A DNA stretch of 64,000 nucleotides, from NCBI GenBank assembly GCA_965263355.1, contig CBDHHL010000045.1, forward strand, positions 38,077-102,076. Reading direction: 5' to 3'. Position 1 is the first letter of the stretch. Every line of letters starts with the position of its first letter. Both the position numbers and the translations under genes were made by a program. This document shows, in pieces, positions 3,303 to 53,545 of the stretch. Source of the DNA: Leptolyngbyaceae cyanobacterium. GTDB lineage: Bacteria; Cyanobacteriota; Cyanobacteriia; Phormidesmidales; Phormidesmidaceae. The notes beneath the pieces are model-generated. The model was not told the DNA's origin. It did no database searches and saw only the letters and a program-made list of their open reading frames with translations.

Positions 3303-3545
3303 TTATTTGTTTTTGTTGATTTGCGCATTGAATAAAGCAAGCATCACTTCATGAACCTGTTGATCTTTTTCTGTGGTGCGTTCTGCAAAGTCGCGATTGT
3401 CCATTCTGTAGACGATTCTTTCAGCAGCATCACGGCATTCAGCCATGAGCTTAATTGAATTCGAATTCAAGAAAATAGGTGTCATTATCTCATCTCCCGA
3501 ATAAAATTTCTTGAGGCCAGTATCCATCTTTAAGCATATGCACAC
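3303..3545 (-). CDS. small hypothetical protein (true start probably MTPIFL)
   Basis: ORF in a co-oriented run. Confidence 0.45.
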   Translation of the reverse strand: MCICLKMDTGLKKFYSGDEIMTPIFLNSNSIKLMAECRDAAERIVYRMDNRDFAERTTEKDQQVHEVMLALFNAQINKNK

Positions 3546-8608: not shown

Positions 8609-8920
8609 ATGGCAGATACAGCAAAGCGTTCCGTCACTCTTATGGCATCTACCTGGAAAGAAATAGATGACTTGGCTGACGCTAACGACGAAATATCGCC
8701 AGCTGAATTAATTAGACAAATAATTCTTAGGGGGTTAAGAATCTATAAATCTGAAATTGCGAAGGGATTAGAGCTAAAAAACAAACAATTAGTTCAGCAA
8801 AAGCTTATTCAACGTCAAGGGGCGATGGCTGAAGCACTAGAAGTGATAAAGGAAAAGGTTGGTGATAATGCTGAAATCTCTCAAGCGATCGCCGCAATAG
8901 AAAAAGGGTTGCGTGATTAA
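8609..8920 (+). CDS. ribbon-helix-helix (CopG-like) regulator
   Basis: KRSVTL beta strand, then WKEIDDLA and SPAELIRQII helices; divergent from the ATPase operon. Confidence 0.65.
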   Translation: MADTAKRSVTLMASTWKEIDDLADANDEISPAELIRQIILRGLRIYKSEIAKGLELKNKQLVQQKLIQRQGAMAEALEVIKEKVGDNAEISQAIAAIEKGLRD

Positions 8921-8955
8921 TTTTTTAGGATGGAGAGTATAGCCATAACAATGCC

Positions 8956-10311
8956 ATGAAGATGAAAAAACCCACAAAAATCATCCGTACCGACAAATGG
9001 ACGCTTAATCCAACCACTGAACAGCGCCTGCTGTTTGGTGAAACGATTAAGATCTATCGTCGTGTGTGTCGGTATTTAGTGGGTATTGTCTTTACGCACT
9101 GGCCAGAGCTAGCACCGCTCACGGCAGATGAGAGAACATCAGCGGTTGAGCGTCTAATGCACGCAACCAGCAACCGCCCAGACGTGAAATACCCGCAAAT
9201 CAACCGGGTGTTTCATAAGTTCCCCAGCTACTACCGTAGAGCCGCTATCACTTTCGCGATTGGCCAGGTTAGTAGCTACATGACCCGGTATCGTGACTGG
9301 CAGTGCGGGCAATCTCGCAAACGTCGAGATGCTAAACCCCCATTGCTAAACCCTGATGCTGGGTGCTATCCAGCGCTGTACAAAGGGCAGTGCTACAAGC
9401 TGCATGGCTTAGACAAGGTTGAGATCAAGGTGTTCACCGGGTCTGATTGGGTTTGGACGATGGTTCAAATCACAGGGCTTAGGGATCGCCATGAGATAGC
9501 AGGTAACAAAATGCTGTCACCGTCACTCATTCTCAATGCTAAGTCATGTCATTTATCGGTTCCGTTTCATTGCAAGCCAGTAAAGCGGAACCCTGACAAA
9601 AATGTGGTTGCTGTAGACCTTGGAATAAATACTACAGCTACAGTTTCAGTCGTAACCCATTGCGGTACTGTAATCTATCGTGAATTTATTCACCCTGGAA
9701 GAGACATAGACCGTCGTGACAAACGCCTAAAGTCTGTATCAATGAGAGCCAACAAGACGATGGGGAAAGGCGGCAAACTCCATAAAGGATTTTGCTCTAA
9801 CACCTATCGTAAATGTCGGAACATCAACACCCAGATTGGCCACATCGTTTCTAGGCGAATAGTTAACATAGCCAAAGACCACAACTCTGAAGCTATTGTC
9901 TTTGAGAACTTAAAAGGATGGAAACCTAAGGGCGGCAAAAAGCGCTCTAACCTCCGTCAGCGGTTCCACGGATGGCTCAAAAGCAAGATTCGCGATTATA
10001 CCGAAATGAAGTGGAAGGAACTTGGTGGCAAAGTCATAGATATCGTTGCCGCCTACACTTCGAAGCTTGCTTATGATGGCTCTGGAGTCGTGAAGCGTGA
10101 CTCTAAAAACTACGCTTTAGCAAAATTTTCTTCTGGCAAGCGGTATAACTGCGACCTCAATGGGAGTCAAAACATCGCAGCTAGAGGAATTCTTAAGCTC
10201 ACTGACCGAAAGGATCGTGAGTTCCGCTCTAGCAAAAGTTCTAGACGGAAGCCCGGAAGCTGGGCTTGCTTATGTGACCTGTGGGTTAGGGATAACCTCA
10301 AGTTAGCATAA
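8956..10311 (+). CDS. tnpB: IS200/IS605-family RNA-guided endonuclease TnpB
   Basis: RuvC-I VAVDLGIN, RuvC-II IVFENL, RuvC-III NCDLNGSQNI. Catalytic D/E/D intact; no Cys4 zinc finger. Confidence 0.9.
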   Translation: MKMKKPTKIIRTDKWTLNPTTEQRLLFGETIKIYRRVCRYLVGIVFTHWPELAPLTADERTSAVERLMHATSNRPDVKYPQINRVFHKFPSYYRRAAITFAIGQVSSYMTRYRDWQCGQSRKRRDAKPPLLNPDAGCYPALYKGQCYKLHGLDKVEIKVFTGSDWVWTMVQITGLRDRHEIAGNKMLSPSLILNAKSCHLSVPFHCKPVKRNPDKNVVAVDLGINTTATVSVVTHCGTVIYREFIHPGRDIDRRDKRLKSVSMRANKTMGKGGKLHKGFCSNTYRKCRNINTQIGHIVSRRIVNIAKDHNSEAIVFENLKGWKPKGGKKRSNLRQRFHGWLKSKIRDYTEMKWKELGGKVIDIVAAYTSKLAYDGSGVVKRDSKNYALAKFSSGKRYNCDLNGSQNIAARGILKLTDRKDREFRSSKSSRRKPGSWACLCDLWVRDNLKLA

Positions 10312-10346
10312 GACACCCCCATCCTCTTTAAGGTGGGGGAGCTTCA
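8958..10346 (+). mobile_element. non-autonomous IS200/IS605 (tnpB-only) element
   Basis: Right-end hairpin CCCCCATCCT..AGGTGGGGG followed by AGCTTCA (ends 10346). No tnpA. Left boundary inferred after CCAT 8954-8957. Confidence 0.6.
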
Positions 10347-10567
10347 TTTGTCAAAGGGTTAGCAATGAACCTGACAAGACACTTCGCATCCAGGGCATAA
10401 TCGATCCAGGGATGGCAGCCGCTATTCGTTCCTATATGACGTTGGCTGGGGTCGACTCGCCAACATCAGCAGCGATCACGTTGCTCAGGAATTATTTATA
10501 TAGTTCCGAGTATCAAAAGTATTTAGATAATGTAGCGTCACATCCACGAGATGACATTAGATCATGA
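10347..10567 (+). pseudogene. 3' part of an RHH-like gene interrupted by the tnpB element
   Basis: Open frame CQRVSNEPDKTLRIQGIIDPGMAAAIRSY..SPTSAAITLLRNYL ends in an ATGA overlap with 10564. Joins in frame to ATG 8930/8951 if 8958-10346 is removed. Confidence 0.5.
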
Positions 10568-37811: not shown

Positions 37812-38366
37812 TCATACAAAAGATGGCAGTAGTCCTTTAGCACCGTTCAAGATTTGCATGGATTCAACCAAAGTTTTGAATGTTTTAAGATAAATATCTG
37901 GATTCTTTTCCGAAAGTCGATTGCCAGCAATATTTACCCTTTCAACATCATTACGACAAATATAATCGGCTAATTCTTCGGCGCTAGGATTTATTAGCAA
38001 TAATTTTTCTAGATTTTTTGCAGTTCTTATTGTGAGCCTTCCACCTGGACTATTTTGACGACCGAACCATACAGTTAAGTCCGTGTCAAAAACATTTGCT
38101 TTTGTCCTAGGTGAATATCCAGCCTCAGGGTATTCTTTGAGGTCGAACATTTTCAGTGAGCAATCCGATATATTCTCTCCCGACCAAGTTTGAATCATGT
38201 AACCTTTGGCGGCCCATCCACCCGTTTTGAATCCGCAAAATCTAGCAGCATCTAAGCCCGCTCTATCTGCTCCGGTCTGGCCACCAGAATGAAACTCTAA
38301 TTTCTTAAACATTTTTTCTCCAAGGGCATTATTAAAGACTCGTTTTTGGTAGGTAGCAGTGGTCAT
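37812..38366 (-). CDS. SLOG-superfamily 'molybdenum carrier'-like protein
   Basis: SGGQTGADRAGLD, Y.PRT.ANV..TD, NIAGNR. Confidence 0.85.
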   Translation of the reverse strand: MTTATYQKRVFNNALGEKMFKKLEFHSGGQTGADRAGLDAARFCGFKTGGWAAKGYMIQTWSGENISDCSLKMFDLKEYPEAGYSPRTKANVFDTDLTVWFGRQNSPGGRLTIRTAKNLEKLLLINPSAEELADYICRNDVERVNIAGNRLSEKNPDIYLKTFKTLVESMQILNGAKGLLPSFV

Positions 38367-47372: not shown

Positions 47373-48173
47373 CTATGCGACCTCCAATGTTTCAGAATCG
47401 CTCTTTAGCACATCCAGAATTGAGCGATACCAAAAGAGTTGGTCTTTATCTGACCTGCTATTGGTTGAGACTGGCTTGCGATCGCTATAGGGCTTACCTT
47501 TCTCAGTGGCAGACCATTTGTTGTCAATCTTTTCTTGATAGCCCAACGTTGCCAGCATGGTATTAACCGCCTGAGGATTGGGATTGCCTGTTTTGTATTT
47601 GAAACCTAGCTCTTTAGCGATTTGAGTAGGCGTGAGAAGTGCTTCGGCAGACTTGAGAGATGACCGTTCTTTGGCTGGGATCTCTGGAAGCGTAAGTTGT
47701 GGATAGTGCTTTTTTATATTTTGAGCCAAAAGTGACTCTTCGTAAGCTGCCCCATGACGTTTCCCAAGGATAAAAGCAACCTTGTCAATCTCTTCAAGTG
47801 ATGCAGCTGGCAAAGCTGTTTCTATGGTTTGTAGCTCTTTCTCGATAAGCAGTGTTTTAGCTTTTTCAAATGCTTCAACTAAATTAAACTTGCATTCTAC
47901 AACTTGCTCCGTATTTCTACTGAGCGTCATTATCACTGTAGCTTGAGGTTCATTTAGCAAGGCATAAACTGTTTCATTCTTTGCCCCGACAGTGTTTGTT
48001 ACAGTCCCGATTTCAAATCGGAGGTGTCCAAAACGGGACTCAATCAACTCTCTATACTTTCTGACTGTTCGTATAAAACTTTCATGTTTTATGCCTAGCT
48101 GCACTGCTATCAGCCTAGAGTCAACTACTATTTCACCGTCACGATTAAATGCTGTAATATTTGTATCAGCCAT
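47373..48173 (-). CDS. Rha-family phage regulatory/antirepressor protein
   Basis: VVDSRLIA..GIKH, LNEPQAT..SRNTEQVVECKFNLVEAF; C-terminal LTPTQIAKELG..VN.ML...GYQ. Confidence 0.85.
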   Translation of the reverse strand: MADTNITAFNRDGEIVVDSRLIAVQLGIKHESFIRTVRKYRELIESRFGHLRFEIGTVTNTVGAKNETVYALLNEPQATVIMTLSRNTEQVVECKFNLVEAFEKAKTLLIEKELQTIETALPAASLEEIDKVAFILGKRHGAAYEESLLAQNIKKHYPQLTLPEIPAKERSSLKSAEALLTPTQIAKELGFKYKTGNPNPQAVNTMLATLGYQEKIDNKWSATEKGKPYSDRKPVSTNSRSDKDQLFWYRSILDVLKSDSETLEVA

Positions 48174-48262
48174 AGTTTAGCCCTTTTCTAAATTGTGGTT
48201 AAGCAGCTGTCAGCACTTCCAATACTGTCAGCTGCTGCCAATCATAGCATTTCTACTGATGC

Positions 48263-49996
48263 TCAACTAGCTTTAAGCATCTTCAAGCCATTGTTCTTGT
48301 GGTTCTTAGCAGCGTTAGTGTCTGCGTTTTGTTTTTCATTGAATAAATCACATTGTTTATTCAAACAAATAAACGTATCTTGAATAGGTCTAATGCCTTT
48401 CTCCCCACAACAATGACAGCGTTGGGAGGAGTATCTAGCTTCGGCTTCTGTATATGTTTTTCCGGCTTCTTTTAATTTAGATTTTGTCTTAGCTCTAAGA
48501 TCTCCCATGCAAGCTGTTTTCAAAGATCTGTTCAATCCTGCCTTAGCTGCTCTGCCGTTTTGCTCGTAATAACTTCCATCTTCAGCTAATTTAGGCGTTG
48601 TCTGTCTTGCCATGTTAGTTAACGCTGTGGCCTCCCAGGCGATGACATCATAAGTTCTTGCTAACCTGGTTGATAACTTATGATTAAACGCGTTTGAACT
48701 ATTAGCAGCTCGTTCATGCAGCCTGGATATTTTATCTCTAAGTTTTTGCTCGTTATTAGTGGCTTCACGCTGCCCACGCTTCCATATTTGGTCTAGCCGC
48801 TTATCATTTTTTTCAGTCATAATGTCAAGCTTTGATTGCAGCTTTTCAATATGATTTTGTATGCGTTCTCGGCTTTCGTTAGGATTAAATAAATGACCTT
48901 CGTCAGTCGCTACAATTGCCTTAATCCCAGGGTCAATGCCCGCCATATGCCCGGTTCGTTTAGCGCATTTTGAGTCTTCTATTAGCAAGTATGGCAACTC
49001 ATTCTCTATTGACTTTTTCTTGGCTAATGCCGCTTGATATTCTTCACTGTTAGCTAATGCCTTAGTTTGTTCTTTCTTCCCTTTAATGCTATCAAGAACT
49101 TTTTTCTTGATGGCGCTTAAAACTTTCCCTTGATTATTAAGTTTTGCTCTATGTTCTACTTCTGCTTCACTTTGAGCAATTAAGCATAAATAGAAGCCGC
49201 TCGGCTTTAATGTCAACTTATAAGTCTTTGTTACGTAGCCTTCAAGCCTTTTTTTATAGCTGCGATCGCACGGCTCTAAAACTAAGCCTTGACCGTTGAA
49301 TTGTCCTTTTTTGAACGGGATAGTTTTTTGATTATTGTTCAACGTGCTAATTTTACGTTGCTTGCCGTCCTTATGCTTTGGCTGCTTTCTGGCGAGCAGT
49401 TTCCCGTCTAAATAAGCCTTCCAAGCAACTTCAAAGTCAGCTAGTAGCCCTCCAACAAAATCGCTATGGCAAGTTAATTCATCAAGACCCTGAGAACTTC
49501 GTGACGCATTTAGTAACGCCATATTGTCTAGGCCCCAACCTTTTCCTTTTAGCTCGCGGGTTATTGAGGTGCTTTTACTGGAACGGGTTATTGAGGTGCT
49601 TTTACTGGAATAAGAGACTTCGCGATATCTATGACGCTCTGGCTTTATTGGCTCATATGGCTTATCCCCAGCCACTAATTCATAGCCTTGTTTCGTTTTG
49701 CCATCGCCATAGTGAATTAAAGGAGCTTTATCTGATTTCTTAAAATATGGCCCTCCTTTAGCAATCTGACAAGCTGCTCCAATCCATCCGCCATTCTTTG
49801 AAAAGCGTAGCGGCGTTTTAATGCAGCCTGACAAGTCAACGCCTTTTTTTTCGGCCCATTCATACCATTCAAGGCAATGATTATGTAAGGCTACGGCCCT
49901 CACATAGTTCCATAGCCATTCAAGTTCTTTGCAAATTTTCTCGTATTTAATTAGCGTCTCTGGAGTTGGCTGAACTTTTACTTTAATTGTCTTCAT
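48263..49996 (-). CDS. TnpB-derived type V (Cas12f/C2c8-like) RNA-guided nuclease
   Basis: RuvC-I GIDPG, RuvC-II IAWEA, zinc finger CHCC..C..C, RuvC-III NADTNAAKN. 577 aa, next to a CRISPR array, no IS right end seen. Confidence 0.8.
   Translation of the reverse strand: MKTIKVKVQPTPETLIKYEKICKELEWLWNYVRAVALHNHCLEWYEWAEKKGVDLSGCIKTPLRFSKNGGWIGAACQIAKGGPYFKKSDKAPLIHYGDGKTKQGYELVAGDKPYEPIKPERHRYREVSYSSKSTSITRSSKSTSITRELKGKGWGLDNMALLNASRSSQGLDELTCHSDFVGGLLADFEVAWKAYLDGKLLARKQPKHKDGKQRKISTLNNNQKTIPFKKGQFNGQGLVLEPCDRSYKKRLEGYVTKTYKLTLKPSGFYLCLIAQSEAEVEHRAKLNNQGKVLSAIKKKVLDSIKGKKEQTKALANSEEYQAALAKKKSIENELPYLLIEDSKCAKRTGHMAGIDPGIKAIVATDEGHLFNPNESRERIQNHIEKLQSKLDIMTEKNDKRLDQIWKRGQREATNNEQKLRDKISRLHERAANSSNAFNHKLSTRLARTYDVIAWEATALTNMARQTTPKLAEDGSYYEQNGRAAKAGLNRSLKTACMGDLRAKTKSKLKEAGKTYTEAEARYSSQRCHCCGEKGIRPIQDTFICLNKQCDLFNEKQNADTNAAKNHKNNGLKMLKAS
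49557..49610. repeat. perfect 27-bp tandem duplication inside the nuclease gene
   Basis: CGGGTTATTGAGGTGCTTTTACTGGAA twice (SSKSTSITR twice). Confidence 0.95.
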
Positions 49997-50159
49997 TGTT
50001 TTGTGCGTCTATTTTCGGGAGTTCTGGCAGCATATCAATAAAGCGTTCCAATAGGTCAGCGATCGATATATTCCAAAGCTTACAATATTGCTCTAGCTTT
50101 TGTTTGCGACTTTGCTTGATGCGGGCGTAAATCCTGCCTTCTCTATTCTCTTTCCCCAT
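49983..50159 (-). CDS. 58-aa ribbon-helix-helix protein upstream of the nuclease (not in ORF track)
   Basis: MGKENREGRIYARIKQSRKQKLEQYCKLWNISIADLLERFIDMLP; overlaps the nuclease start by 14 nt. Confidence 0.7.
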   Translation of the reverse strand: MGKENREGRIYARIKQSRKQKLEQYCKLWNISIADLLERFIDMLPELPKIDAQNNEDN

Positions 50160-50175
50160 TTATATTAAAAAATGC

Positions 50176-50205
50176 TTGACGTACAAAATCATAGCACGCT
50201 AATAT
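50176..50205 (+). promoter_or_regulatory. promoter for the ncRNA/CRISPR transcript
   Basis: TTGACG-N18-TAATAT. Confidence 0.7.
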
Positions 50206-50211
50206 AAGGAC

Positions 50212-50464
50212 ATCGCAGTTTGGGCGACAAGGCAGCGAAAACGTTGTTGGATGGCTTCAGCGCTAAGGCTCTTTAGGGGGCTATGGGCATCTTTTGTTGG
50301 GAAATCAACAAACACCAGCCGAAAGGCAAGATAGGAGCAAAAGGAGTCCGTAAGGCCCTTATAGATTCGCCGGATCTATGGCGAACAGTCTCATCTTTTT
50401 TTTGGCATCGCTTAGCTTTGCCAAAAAAAACAACCTTGAAAAACAGGGATTAAAGCTTTGGCAG
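50212..50464 (+). ncRNA. putative tracrRNA-like structured RNA
   Basis: Non-coding with several hairpins; ends in anti-repeat AACAGGGATTAAAGCTTTGGCAG (50442-50464), complementary to repeat nt 2-24. Confidence 0.65.
50431..50444 (+). promoter_or_regulatory. boxA-like antitermination motif
   Basis: CAACCTTGAAAAAC resembles cyanobacterial rrn boxA (GAACCTTGAAAA). Confidence 0.55.
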
Positions 50465-50534
50465 GATTGCCATTTTCTGAGCTTTGCCAGAATCGCTCAT
50501 AAAGCCTTGCTGCTAAAGGGATGCAGCTCATGCA

Positions 50535-51020
50535 GCTGCTAAAGCTTTAATCCCTGCTAAGGGACTGAAACTTAGCCCTGATGAGGTTGAGGTTATCCAG
50601 CGAAAACGGCTGCTAAAGCTTTAATCCCTGTTAAGGGACTGAAACTGCTTACTGGTTGGGTTACGACGGTCTGAGGTGTCGCTGCTAAAGCTTTAATCCC
50701 TATTAAGGGGCTGAAACGTAGGGAACTTTAAGCGGGCTGTACTCAGGCTCTGCTGCTAAAGCTTTAATCCCTGCTAAGGGGCTGAAACAAGAGACTGAAA
50801 CTCGTATGCCCTACCAATTTTAACGCGGGCGTGTAAAACTGCTAAAGCTTTAATCCCTGCTAAGAGACTGAAACTTTTCCAAGGGTTATGTCACCCTAGC
50901 ATTAGACGAGGGCTGCTAAAGCTTTAATCCCTGTTAAGGGACTGAAACCGTTGCATAATGTCGGGCTCGCTGAACTCTTCCAGGCTGCTAAAGCTTTAAT
51001 CCCTTAACAGGGACTGAAAC
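50535..51020 (+). CRISPR. CRISPR array, 7 repeats (37 bp) and 6 spacers (34-37 bp)
   Basis: GCTGCTAAAGCTTTAATCCCTGYTAAGGGACTGAAAC at 50535, 50609, 50681, 50752, 50838, 50912, 50984. Confidence 0.97.
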
Positions 51021-52173
51021 TAAGCTCAATATGAGCCATATGATCAGGCTGGCTGTCCGCTATCGATTTCGCTTGTTGCTCAATAAATTCAGCATCAACA
51101 GATATGGGGCACGGCTCAATCTTGACATCAAAGTTATTTATCAACGCTTCATAAACCATCGGATTTATGCCCGTCTCAACATTAATTAGTTCATCCAGCG
51201 AAGCGAAGCTATCAAGACATTGATTGCCTTGATAGTGGCTTCCACAGTCGCCCATAGTCTTTATATGGCGTCCCCCAGCGATGACATTACGGACTACTTG
51301 AGCGGTCGTATCTTTTTCTGTAAATTCGCCCGCGTCACAGGTGCGCGCATTGCCAGCAAGCGTGTTGTTTTTTACGGCATTAATTCGGCTGTCATTCCCC
51401 TTAACAGTATTCAGGCCAATTCCAGACTTGCCATTAAACACGCTGAGATTGTCTTTAATTAGTAGATTGCCCCGGTAGATGCCCGTATCATTTTGGAAAT
51501 GAATGCCGTTCCCTTCATCTAAGGCCATGGTTGCGAAACCCTTAGAGAACACTCGTGAGATTACATTGCATTGGTTTCCAAATACCAGATTCTCAGAGAT
51601 TTCATACAACGTTTCCGGCGGTCCTTTTGGCTGACTATTGGCAATGCCATGGCTGCCGCTAATCGAATACCAGCAATTATGGTAAATGACATTACCTTTA
51701 ATCAGATGAGAGTGCCCATCTTTGTTGGATATTCCCGCCCCTGGAAAATGATGGATCTTACATCCCTGAATTTTGATGTTTGAGCAATTGTTTAATGCGA
51801 TGCCCCGTCCTGTTATTTGAAGCGGCGCATTATGCCACCATAAAGACAATGCATAGTCTAGGTCTAAATCCTGGCTGTGGCCTACAAACTCTATATCACT
51901 GATATAAACGTGATTGGAGTTTTTTATCGCTAAACCATTCACGTCGGATATGACCTTCACAGGGCCATCACCAAACGGCATTATCTTAATTGGAGTTTCG
52001 GCTGTTCCTTTTAGCCCACTAGCAAAAAAAGCATTTCCACGGGTCCGTGTTTCCCATGAAGTGTTGTATTCTTCATGCTGATAAACGCCAGACTTTAGCA
52101 GGATACGATCGCTTGCCTCAACAACTTTAAGCGCACTTTGAAATTGATCTGATGTCTCGATGATGTATCTCAT
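51004..52173 (-). CDS. right-handed parallel beta-helix (pectin lyase-like) protein
   Basis: Repeated I.GN..Y.N / G.GI turns; last codons lie inside CRISPR repeat 7. Confidence 0.85.
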   Translation of the reverse strand: MRYIIETSDQFQSALKVVEASDRILLKSGVYQHEEYNTSWETRTRGNAFFASGLKGTAETPIKIMPFGDGPVKVISDVNGLAIKNSNHVYISDIEFVGHSQDLDLDYALSLWWHNAPLQITGRGIALNNCSNIKIQGCKIHHFPGAGISNKDGHSHLIKGNVIYHNCWYSISGSHGIANSQPKGPPETLYEISENLVFGNQCNVISRVFSKGFATMALDEGNGIHFQNDTGIYRGNLLIKDNLSVFNGKSGIGLNTVKGNDSRINAVKNNTLAGNARTCDAGEFTEKDTTAQVVRNVIAGGRHIKTMGDCGSHYQGNQCLDSFASLDELINVETGINPMVYEALINNFDVKIEPCPISVDAEFIEQQAKSIADSQPDHMAHIELSFSPC

Positions 52174-52176
52174 TGA

Positions 52177-52812
52177 TTAGCTCCCGAAAAAACCTGCATT
52201 ACTTGCATCAAACGCAAAGATAGGACTTGCCCTAATAGACTCCGCAACAGTTTCTTTGTTTGCCATGACTCTATCAAAGCCAAAGGCTACATATCCAAAT
52301 ATATCCCCATTCTGAGCCAATATAGGACAGGAGATAGTTAGCTGAATATTATTTGGTTCTAGCTGCTGTCTCAATAGACCCTCTGGGAGATCCTGAGTAG
52401 GCTTAACCCAGCATTGACCTAACTTATGATAATCAAGTTGCTCTAGATATATGTCCTCTTGCTGGATGTCCAGCCATCCATATGTTGCGGACACAGGCAC
52501 TCCGATCCGTGCGATCGCAAAACTAAAACGTCGACGTTGGTCCTCGTCGTACAAAAATGACCCTACCCATTGAGCGTTCAGCCTATCGCCCATGGAGGTT
52601 ATTACGTCCTCGATGCTTTGTTGATATATAAGGCCTCTAGCAATGCCCTGTGCTATAGAACCAGGCGTTTTGATTTGCAAGCAAGCCTCGCTAAACTGAG
52701 TATGACTCGTCCAGAAAAGAACTAGGCCAAAAAATAACCCAATCGATGCGATTATGCACGCCCGACCCAATTGTGTTCTAAGGAATGGAAACAATGCTCT
52801 ATCGTTTCGCAT
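52177..52812 (-). CDS. membrane protein with GAF/Cache-like sensor domain
   Basis: N-terminal TM; ISCPILAQNGDIFGYVAFGF. Confidence 0.6.
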   Translation of the reverse strand: MRNDRALFPFLRTQLGRACIIASIGLFFGLVLFWTSHTQFSEACLQIKTPGSIAQGIARGLIYQQSIEDVITSMGDRLNAQWVGSFLYDEDQRRRFSFAIARIGVPVSATYGWLDIQQEDIYLEQLDYHKLGQCWVKPTQDLPEGLLRQQLEPNNIQLTISCPILAQNGDIFGYVAFGFDRVMANKETVAESIRASPIFAFDASNAGFFGS

Positions 52813-53545
52813 TAGGAGTTTTGCTATCTATTGACTTTTCATTAGCCATGTCCTTAGCCTTTGATACAATCCCAACAGCTGCACCGGTTGCATTAACGAG
52901 CGCCCCGATCACTAGGATCGTAGCGTCTCTGCCAAAAGACATCAGTTCCGTTGGCACTCGCCTAAAAATACTTAATAAAAATGGGGTCAGATAGAAAAAA
53001 ACACCCGCATAGATCAGCCACTTAACGACAAGTTCTTGTAGCTCAGACTGGCGCAATTGAACTTGCATATCCTTGTTGGACGCTTTTAGTTCTTTATTGG
53101 ATTTCTCCAATTGCAAGATCAAATCTCGTTCCTGTTGCTCTTGCTCCTTTATTTGTTCTTCTTGGCGTAAATATTCTGTGCGGTCTCGAACGACTTCGCC
53201 TACATAGGTTTCTCCTTCGTGATTGACAATAAATAGTCGTAGCCAGATAGGGATCTGTCGTCCCATTCGTGTTTTGCCAAATAGCGGAGCTTCAGAACCC
53301 ATATCACGGGTCCTCTGCCCACGTAGAAACGCGTCATACATTCTGTCATGAGCGCTTTCTGATATAAGAGATTCAGGAACCAAACTGTAGACTTTCAAGC
53401 CAACCATTGCCGTTGGATTTTCGTACTCAAAAAGTCTAGCCGCTGCTGGGTTAGCAAGGACTATTTTGCGTTGTGAATTCCCAAAGATGACGGGATCAGG
53501 ATTGAATTCAAATCCAGCTCTTGCTAATGCTGCGTCAGGCATCAA
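52799..53545 (-). CDS. PAS domain + coiled coil + two C-terminal TM helices
   Basis: IVLANPAAARLFEY..VG..V..LVP..VVRDRTE. Confidence 0.75.
   Translation of the reverse strand: MMPDAALARAGFEFNPDPVIFGNSQRKIVLANPAAARLFEYENPTAMVGLKVYSLVPESLISESAHDRMYDAFLRGQRTRDMGSEAPLFGKTRMGRQIPIWLRLFIVNHEGETYVGEVVRDRTEYLRQEEQIKEQEQQERDLILQLEKSNKELKASNKDMQVQLRQSELQELVVKWLIYAGVFFYLTPFLLSIFRRVPTELMSFGRDATILVIGALVNATGAAVGIVSKAKDMANEKSIDSKTPNAKR

Follow-up and report, generated by a model that had tools for sequence, protein, structure and literature searches.

A phage-borne accessory insert with a Cas12p module of a short subclade, probably aimed at co-infecting relatives

The use by phages of CRISPR systems against other mobile elements is an established theme (PMC6293099; 10.64898/2026.04.20.719267; PMC13728456). 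The described proteins closest to the locus considered here are those of the Cas12p family, for which a preprint by Wang et al. reports twelve phage proteins of 500–700 aa that use a trans-activating CRISPR RNA (tracrRNA) and a GTN protospacer adjacent motif (PAM) (bioRxiv 10.1101/2025.01.20.633832). According to that preprint, eleven of the twelve are more than 70% alike and one, 'hacker-2', is divergent; Cas12p-1 is activated by thioredoxin (TrxA) through its TB domain and residue C127; the natural target is left open ('possibly targeting rival nucleic acids') and the host is not known. The main text of the preprint, at least, makes no mention of ribbon, Arc or cyanobact, and has the word 'spacer' only in its methods. 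Here we describe a 64,000-nt stretch of DNA (the window; contig CBDHHL010000045.1 of 102,076 bp, positions 38,077 to 102,076, from a Leptolyngbyaceae cyanobacterium assembly) in which a nuclease gene, a small ribbon-helix-helix (RHH)-like gene, a tracrRNA and a CRISPR array lie together. We consider it probable, at roughly 0.78, that they form a phage-borne Cas12p (type V-P) module of a short subclade, present as an accessory insert and aimed at co-infecting relatives of the phage.

The nuclease is encoded by an open reading frame (ORF) of 577 aa at 48263–49996 (−) and, as the initial annotation of this DNA had observed, it is 126 aa longer than the 451-aa TnpB encoded at 8956–10311 and has an intact RuvC triad and zinc finger. 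In particular, D355, E455 and D559 align with D378, E478 and D582 of Cas12p-1, the zinc-finger residues C527, C530, C544 and C549 do not vary across the aligned homologs (32 of 32), and the catalytic residues are kept in all 14 close variants (85–99%). A search of the PDB returned a full-length match to Cas12p (9JFS/9JG3) at E 1.5e-111, with the next match at E 1.8e-9. We regard the identity as settled by this search: judged by its sequence, the nuclease is Cas12p (type V-P, 'Cas12 hacker'), a known family, and the annotation's suggestion of a possibly undescribed TnpB-to-Cas12 lineage gives way to the placement by phylogeny in the Cas12p clade. The window protein is identical to Cas12p-1 at 235 of 538 aligned residues (44%), and its predicted model (predicted local distance difference test, 84.7) retrieved 9JFS first (Z 24.3, root mean square deviation 3.1, 464 residues aligned) and 9JG3 second (Z 24.0) in a fold search, with ISDra2 TnpB behind Cas12p at Z 19.5. 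In an IQ-TREE phylogeny of 28 rows, a clade of 20 rows (100/100) unites the window protein with Cas12p-1 and leaves out the V-U2 effector of CL131; within that clade the window protein belongs to an 8-row short subclade (100/99) and Cas12p-1 to a 10-row clade (96/99). A FastTree phylogeny of 65 rows agrees, both trees being midpoint-rooted. One of the homolog loci, L009, encodes Cas12p-1 itself (28 of 28 residue numbers from the preprint fit). A profile of the short clade matched one of 401 cyanobacterial genomes, at E 1e-40, and a search of IMG/VR with the single window protein gave no match.

As far as it has been described, Cas12p-1 (PDB 9JFS, 9JG3) shares with the window system a phage origin, a length of 500–700 aa, the WED-REC-TB-PI-RuvC-ZF layout, an active triad, a 37-nt repeat ending AAAC, a tracrRNA with a 5′ GUUUG pseudoknot, a GTN PAM (which we infer for the window) and the lack of adaptation genes. 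Other known systems resemble it less. The V-U2 (C2c8, Cas12u2) system of cyanophage vB_AphaS-CL131 (PMC6293099) likewise has a cyanophage-borne TnpB-like effector and an array without cas1 or cas2, and the best library hidden Markov models for the window protein are of this type, but we rejected membership of V-U2 because the likeness of the window protein is confined to the RuvC half (NF038192 for C2c8, 171 bits against a cut-off of 350; PADLOC Cas12u2, 185 bits) and it stands in a separate clade from the CL131 effector. Cas12k, which belongs to CRISPR-associated transposons of type V-K, is also cyanobacterial, with a GTN PAM, 37-bp repeats, Arc-like regulators at some loci and, in one preprint, a proposed borrowing of spacers from type I-D systems (bioRxiv 10.1101/2021.02.06.429022). 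Cas12k is, however, nuclease-dead and tied to TnsBC/TniQ, and its fold match is weak (Z ~11), whereas the window protein keeps the RuvC triad and no tnsB, tnsC or tniQ was found among the 51 window ORFs scanned with Pfam; this candidate, too, was rejected. Cas12r of the Thermus Lalka phages (bioRxiv 10.64898/2026.04.20.719267) is similarly a phage-encoded type V effector that lies among structural genes and takes part in mobile-element conflict, but by its description it belongs to another family and another host, and most of its spacers hit integrative elements, the single target identified in the present case being an allele of a sibling phage.

The window's tracrRNA and array lie upstream of cas12p and face away from it. 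A promoter match of the form TTGACG-N18-TAATAT at 50176–50205 (+) occurs once in the window and in none of 100 shuffles; scored as a generic sigma70-type promoter it reaches 9 of 12, and such matches occur at chance frequency in the region (6 found, 6.0 expected). Both this divergent promoter and the roughly 320 nt of non-coding sequence behind it had been recognized in the annotation, the gap from the predicted start to the array being 323 nt. The predicted tracrRNA (50212–50475, +, 3′ end approximate) opens at 50214 with the motif CGCAGTTTGGRCG, which is also found in homolog loci; among the full-length homolog loci examined, this 5′ motif is missing from three, namely L083 and L089, which end at or inside the gene, and L028, a 25% outlier. 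With the start placed at 50212, GUUU (50218–50221) falls at positions 7–10, as in Cas12p-1; in the Cas12p structure it forms the pseudoknot with AAAC of the repeat. The region has a strong predicted fold (z −4.55; 0 of 200 shuffles). Two 3′ stems can be aligned readily across 11 RNAs, with 96.7% of their cells paired, against 31–51% in slid controls, and both partners have changed in 8 of the 11 pairs; it weighs against this result that we drew the stem structure from the same sequences that were used for the pair counts. A 23-nt anti-repeat at 50442–50464 is 96% complementary to the repeat, and a second stretch, at 50386–50392, consists of the seven bases that follow the last stem, 7 of 7 of which pair with repeat positions −11 to −5; six or seven of these seven bases pair with the repeat in 10 of 11 loci. 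Because the stems covary and the anti-repeats are matched to the repeat, we conclude that tracrRNA, array and nuclease belong together, as expected of the compact, phage-encoded type V system with a tracrRNA that had been proposed. Compared with that of Cas12p-1, this tracrRNA has a middle stem extended by ~60 nt, and its anti-repeat is split. Rfam gave no match at gathering score, and the window's repeat, tracrRNA start and beta-helix alleles (described below) were not found in IMG/VR.

The matches of the nuclease to Pfam OrfB_IS605 and NCBIfam guided_TnpB, an Arc-like gene of the kind typical of IS605 elements, and a layout unlike that of other Cas12p loci could also be explained if an ordinary IS605 TnpB had landed beside an unrelated array. 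We consider this scarcely credible, given that the anti-repeats are complementary to the neighbouring array, that arrays lie beside 14 of 15 homolog loci, and that a single joint spans gene and array with no insertion sequence (IS) end. The hairpin and TTCA that follow the TnpB at 8956, which we take to be the IS605 right end, are absent after the cas12p gene, in agreement with the annotation, and the end of the cassette, inside a stop region, has no end hairpin. The close homologs, too, are accompanied by arrays and lack IS ends. An IS605 element with an omegaRNA at the 3′ end of its gene is likewise largely refuted, the RNA partner being upstream and the end hairpin missing.

Moreover, cas12p, the RHH gene, the tracrRNA and the array are one insert, present or absent as a unit. 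Three public runs, from two samples of one study (one run may be the window's source), hold the locus, and all three show a joint, 48270→51026, that skips the 2,755 bp of the cassette (48271–51025). The depths of this empty-site joint were 78, 45 and 35, against roughly 80–390 over the cas12p gene, these being contig depths and not cell shares. The cassette is inserted six codons before the stop of a gene for a right-handed beta-helix protein (51004–52173, −; 389 aa), and the window alone confirms the site, since LVEHQ*, with which 4 of 4 further proteins in the same cluster end, is stranded on the far side of the cassette at 48253–48270 (−), and the window's own copy ends ELSFSPC, inside the last repeat.

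The array (50535–51020, +) consists, as annotated, of seven 37-bp repeats ending GAAAC, with six spacers of 34–49 nt. Spacer 4 includes a 13-nt repeat remnant (50789–50801) identical to the end of the variant repeat 5, which is best read as the trace of an array deletion, and other spacers stand beside repeats in the same public runs, so that the array is polymorphic. The last repeat has an inverted loop and thereby provides the stop codon for the beta-helix gene; two other repeat variants tested would read through. No cas1, cas2 or cas4 was found in the window, either by tblastn with a cyanobacterial type I-D set (sole match, cas6 at E 0.28) or by Pfam on the 51 ORFs, which bears out the annotation's statement that adaptation genes are lacking. 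The 3′ 24 nt of the repeat match at 20 of 24 positions those of 4 of 6 cyanobacterial host repeats, one of which adjoins a type I-D cas4-cas1-cas2 operon. The leader (50475–50534, +), with a TGCCA-AAT motif near −50, resembles the leaders of the host arrays at 17–27 of 60 nt, with p 0.0007 and 0.002 for two of them and 0.05–0.30 for four, the six hosts having been chosen by repeat likeness. Type I-D Cas4 selects GTN PAMs (PMC5896167). From the likeness of repeat and leader, this choice of PAM and the precedent proposed for Cas12k, we infer that new spacers would be supplied in trans by type I-D adaptation of the host; that the leader likeness is significant for only two of the six host leaders weighs against this.

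The host-like stem-loop and 3′ end that the repeat retains, and the use of GTN by type I-D systems themselves (PMC5896167), would also fit an array that mainly feeds the host's type I-D Cascade, with repeats processed by Cas6 and the nuclease a bystander or decaying. This seems to us quite improbable: the tracrRNA with its repeat-matched anti-repeats has been retained, gene and array are gained or lost together, and the active site is intact in every one of the close variants.

To what, then, is the Cas12p module directed? Spacer 5 (50875–50911, +) translates to FSKGYVTLALDE, and its match to the window's own beta-helix gene (FSKGFATMALDE) lies far above 500 shuffles. The counterpart in the window's own allele (51513–51549, −) is preceded by GTG and matches at 26 of 37 nt; 8 of the 11 mismatches are at third codon positions, and six lie in the first 20 nt. 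A second beta-helix allele (P0230), 59% identical to the window's, contains the spacer-5 peptide exactly (12 of 12 residues), always after Val, in 7 of 7 full-length cluster members, five short and unrelated Logan members of the cluster (49–55 aa) having been dropped before the count. Because the spacer starts on a codon boundary directly after Val, GTN stands 5′ of the target whatever codon is used. Furthermore, two runs (X1 and X2) contain contigs that cover spacer 5 and extend beyond 50912 into sequence encoding NGIHFQ, the next residues of a P0230-type gene, which indicates that the target DNA is present in the same samples. The use against competing elements suggested in the annotation is in this respect supported, in that spacer 5 matches a sibling-phage allele.

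Several points weigh against this interpretation. A target was identified for one of the six spacers, its complete match is at the protein level only, and its PAM is inferred from a codon. In the peptide-level test against the window the other five spacers were at chance (p 0.29–0.83), and searches of the spacers gave no credible match among 72,556 plasmids (3 records, E 0.5–2), 50,697 phages (repeat only), the 401 cyanobacterial genomes (mostly repeat matches) or 28 phage records (repeat matches in two, one weak match), nor did part of spacer 1 in IMG/VR. In addition, 6 of 7 contigs with the targeted allele equal in size contigs with Cas12p variants, one of these sizes (165,173) also occurring with the other allele. 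Judged by these equal sizes, the victims appear to be cassette-bearing siblings; the targeted allele seems to sit mostly on cassette-like contigs, and the conflict is not simply one of carrier against non-carrier.

The same contig sizes could mean that spacer 5 is a self-spacer, acquired from a former allele of the lineage, after which self-cleavage would have favoured a recombinant into which the other allele had been exchanged; the system would be active, but spacer 5 an accident and not a weapon. No cassette carrier besides the window was seen with the other allele, spacer 5 lies near the old end of the array, and the two alleles are mosaic (48 of 50 residues identical at the N-terminus, 11 of 50 near the end), all as this account would have it. 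We hold it to be possible, though rather unlikely, as both cassette flanks in the window fit the empty-site allele, as if the cassette had entered that background, and the linkage rests on contig sizes, not DNA. Whatever its origin, spacer 5, once present, targets siblings.

Action against relatives may be taken a step further, although we doubt this extension more than we credit it: the cassette could be an RNA-guided allele drive within one phage population. During co-infection the rival beta-helix allele, of a putative depolymerase or host-range gene, would be cut ~490 bp from the cassette edge, and repair from the uncut genome would copy in the resident allele and, along with it, the cassette or its array. 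If this were true, spacer content would steer which host-range allele spreads, and the drive may use a trimmed Cas12p whose thioredoxin requirement is unlike that of Cas12p-1.

The short subclade differs from Cas12p-1 in ways that bear on that requirement. The window protein is 45 aa shorter than Cas12p-1 and, like its subclade, has neither the REC insert of ~45 aa nor the C-terminal tail. W44, Y45, W47, L55, I59, L63, C76 and I78, as well as D157, N222, Q223 and the RuvC triad, agree with residues that have a function in Cas12p-1; among the PAM residues the equivalents of D197, N261 and Q262 are kept and K332 is replaced by N. Eight of 14 TrxA-pocket residues are identical, including the reactive cysteine (C127 in Cas12p-1, C76 here), which is invariant in 32 of 32 homologs; W102 is absent, and the other changes are L51 to K, I172 to P, F105 to V, I110 to C and V113 to T. 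On this evidence the window Cas12p likely depends on thioredoxin. Weighing against it are the loss of W102, with the REC insert, and the Lys in place of L51, both residues being needed for TrxA binding in Cas12p-1, and the alignment of only two of seven basic residues in TB.b. These losses, the shorter and less basic TB.b loop and an extra cysteine (C58) in 10 of 14 short-clade proteins might instead reflect a protein that works without thioredoxin or with another host partner. We consider that unlikely in view of the invariant cysteine, the retained equivalents of W44, Y45, W47, L107, I111, L115 and I129, and the low content of secondary structure at residues 51–155 of the model, which is expected of a partner-dependent domain. 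The TB/REC region of cas12p also shows indel polymorphism (49557–49610 and 49851–49858): the public runs contain a 42-nt insert, which corresponds to the 14-aa duplication with WPLW of the 591-aa P0004 and is absent from the window, and an exact 27-nt tandem duplication present in the window is missing from some variants. A scan of IMG/VR yielded 11 long-clade loci and one short-clade locus (L004), and since this parallels the eleven similar proteins and one divergent protein of the preprint, 'hacker-2' may be the short-clade protein of L004.

Upstream of cas12p, a 58-aa ORF (49983–50159, −) overlaps the nuclease start by 14 nt and corresponds to the overlapping RHH gene of the annotation. Nine of its ten best named language-model (Atlas) neighbours share a family or clan, and by these it is RHH-like; it has no Pfam or NCBIfam match, and its monomer model matched no fold among solved structures. 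It is weakly like a small gene at the same place in L087 (26%, E 1e-4), which has an RHH-like gene with a divergent tracrRNA upstream and is the sole locus with such a gene among 21. In the IS605 elements described in a recent preprint, Arc-type RHH proteins repress divergent promoters (bioRxiv 10.64898/2026.09.24.754181), and on that analogy the RHH-like protein is probably a repressor. Those Arc-TnpB elements resemble the window in having a small RHH gene, divergent overlapping promoters and an adjacent TnpB-family nuclease; in contrast, the window has no tnpA and no IS ends, and its divergent promoter would drive the tracrRNA and array. A candidate extended −10 for the RHH-cas12p transcript, TGCTATGAT, lies at 50188–50196 (−); this 9-mer has one other copy in the window, at 48241–48249, before the Rha gene.

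An array downstream of the gene is reported to be near-universal for Cas12 (PMC10691335). Indeed, tracrRNA and array lie downstream on the same strand in 11 of 12 full-length IMG/VR loci, the twelfth ending just after the tracrRNA, and the array is downstream in 3 of 3 genome loci (14 of 15 relatives in all). Cas12p-type tracrRNA-array units evidently duplicate and move, since upstream units are found in the window and L087 and second units in L011 and L015. The latter (L011:1–996 and L015:1–527, −) lie on the opposite strand, kilobases from cas12p, with a different repeat. In L087 a divergent tracrRNA (565–718, −) by a Cas12p-clade gene is fused directly to one repeat-like end, a natural single guide, and a second tracrRNA lies downstream (2697–2815, +). 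Two promoter-driven tracrRNA-like RNAs occur in each of cyanophages CrV-01T (L001:2800–2930 and 3373–3510) and Cr-LKS4 (L002:3011–3140 and 3373–3510), where the upstream RNAs belong to a 668-aa Cas12p-clade gene annotated 'transposase' that has no array; their pseudoknot sequence is GUUC, not GUUU, and in each phage one of the two copies has GAAC behind its last stem, suggesting natural single-guide RNAs. The Cas12p-1 locus carries a second array (L009/L010:6930–8928), the repeat of which approximates the reverse complement of repeats by V-U2-like genes in L017, L019, L022 and L025. In a Cuspidothrix assembly (L104:4001–5880), a Cas12p-clade gene is broken into several frames, and a tracrRNA and 20-repeat array remain.

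The window as a whole is phage-like, with lysozyme, D5 primase, a helicase, Rha, KilA-N and glycine-rich proteins among the scanned ORFs. Its host is probably a cyanobacterium, because homologs occur in cyanophages and cyanobacterial assemblies and the repeat resembles cyanobacterial ones. Two membrane proteins encoded at 52177–53545, one with a PAS domain and one of 211 aa, adjoin the beta-helix gene, a possible phage sensor module. The TnpB of ordinary type (451 aa), an upstream ORF of 103 aa and the end hairpin together span 8609–10350, and near-identical copies are present on three other contigs of the same phage group. Outside the cassette, between the cas12p stop and the Rha gene, lies a strong GC hairpin (48166–48238) with a weak, sub-threshold Rfam antisense-RNA match; in the public runs the depth is much lower over the Rha region, which is therefore another variable segment.

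Taken together, the observations suggest the following course of events. Divergent, overlapping promoters would yield an RHH-cas12p mRNA and a tracrRNA/pre-crRNA transcript, both probably damped by the RHH protein. The tracrRNA, which by its sequence pairs with the repeat at three places, would load Cas12p, as its homology suggests. By analogy with Cas12p-1, host thioredoxin would dock on the TB domain through C76 and activate the nuclease, and the complex would cut double-stranded DNA beside a 5′-GTN PAM, as expected from spacer 5 and the family. Its targets would include co-infecting siblings with the other beta-helix allele, from which the own allele, to judge by its mismatches, escapes. 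Type I-D Cas4-Cas1-Cas2 of the host would provide new spacers in trans.

This is not a new nuclease family. What is new is the short subclade, the upstream divergent RNA unit, the 2,755-bp insert with its empty site and the target of spacer 5; the initial annotation had included neither thioredoxin as a likely cofactor, nor the boundaries of the insertion, nor the target of the spacer. In the literature we found no account of Cas12p targets, of insertion polymorphism or of the present layout, some of which a journal version or supplements of the preprint may hold. A short Cas12p without two of the thioredoxin-docking residues tests the reach of the cofactor requirement. The locus also offers an empty-site allele and, in a sibling phage from these samples, a candidate for a natural protospacer next to the PAM that would be expected, and CRISPR conflict between a phage and its siblings thereby becomes testable within one population.

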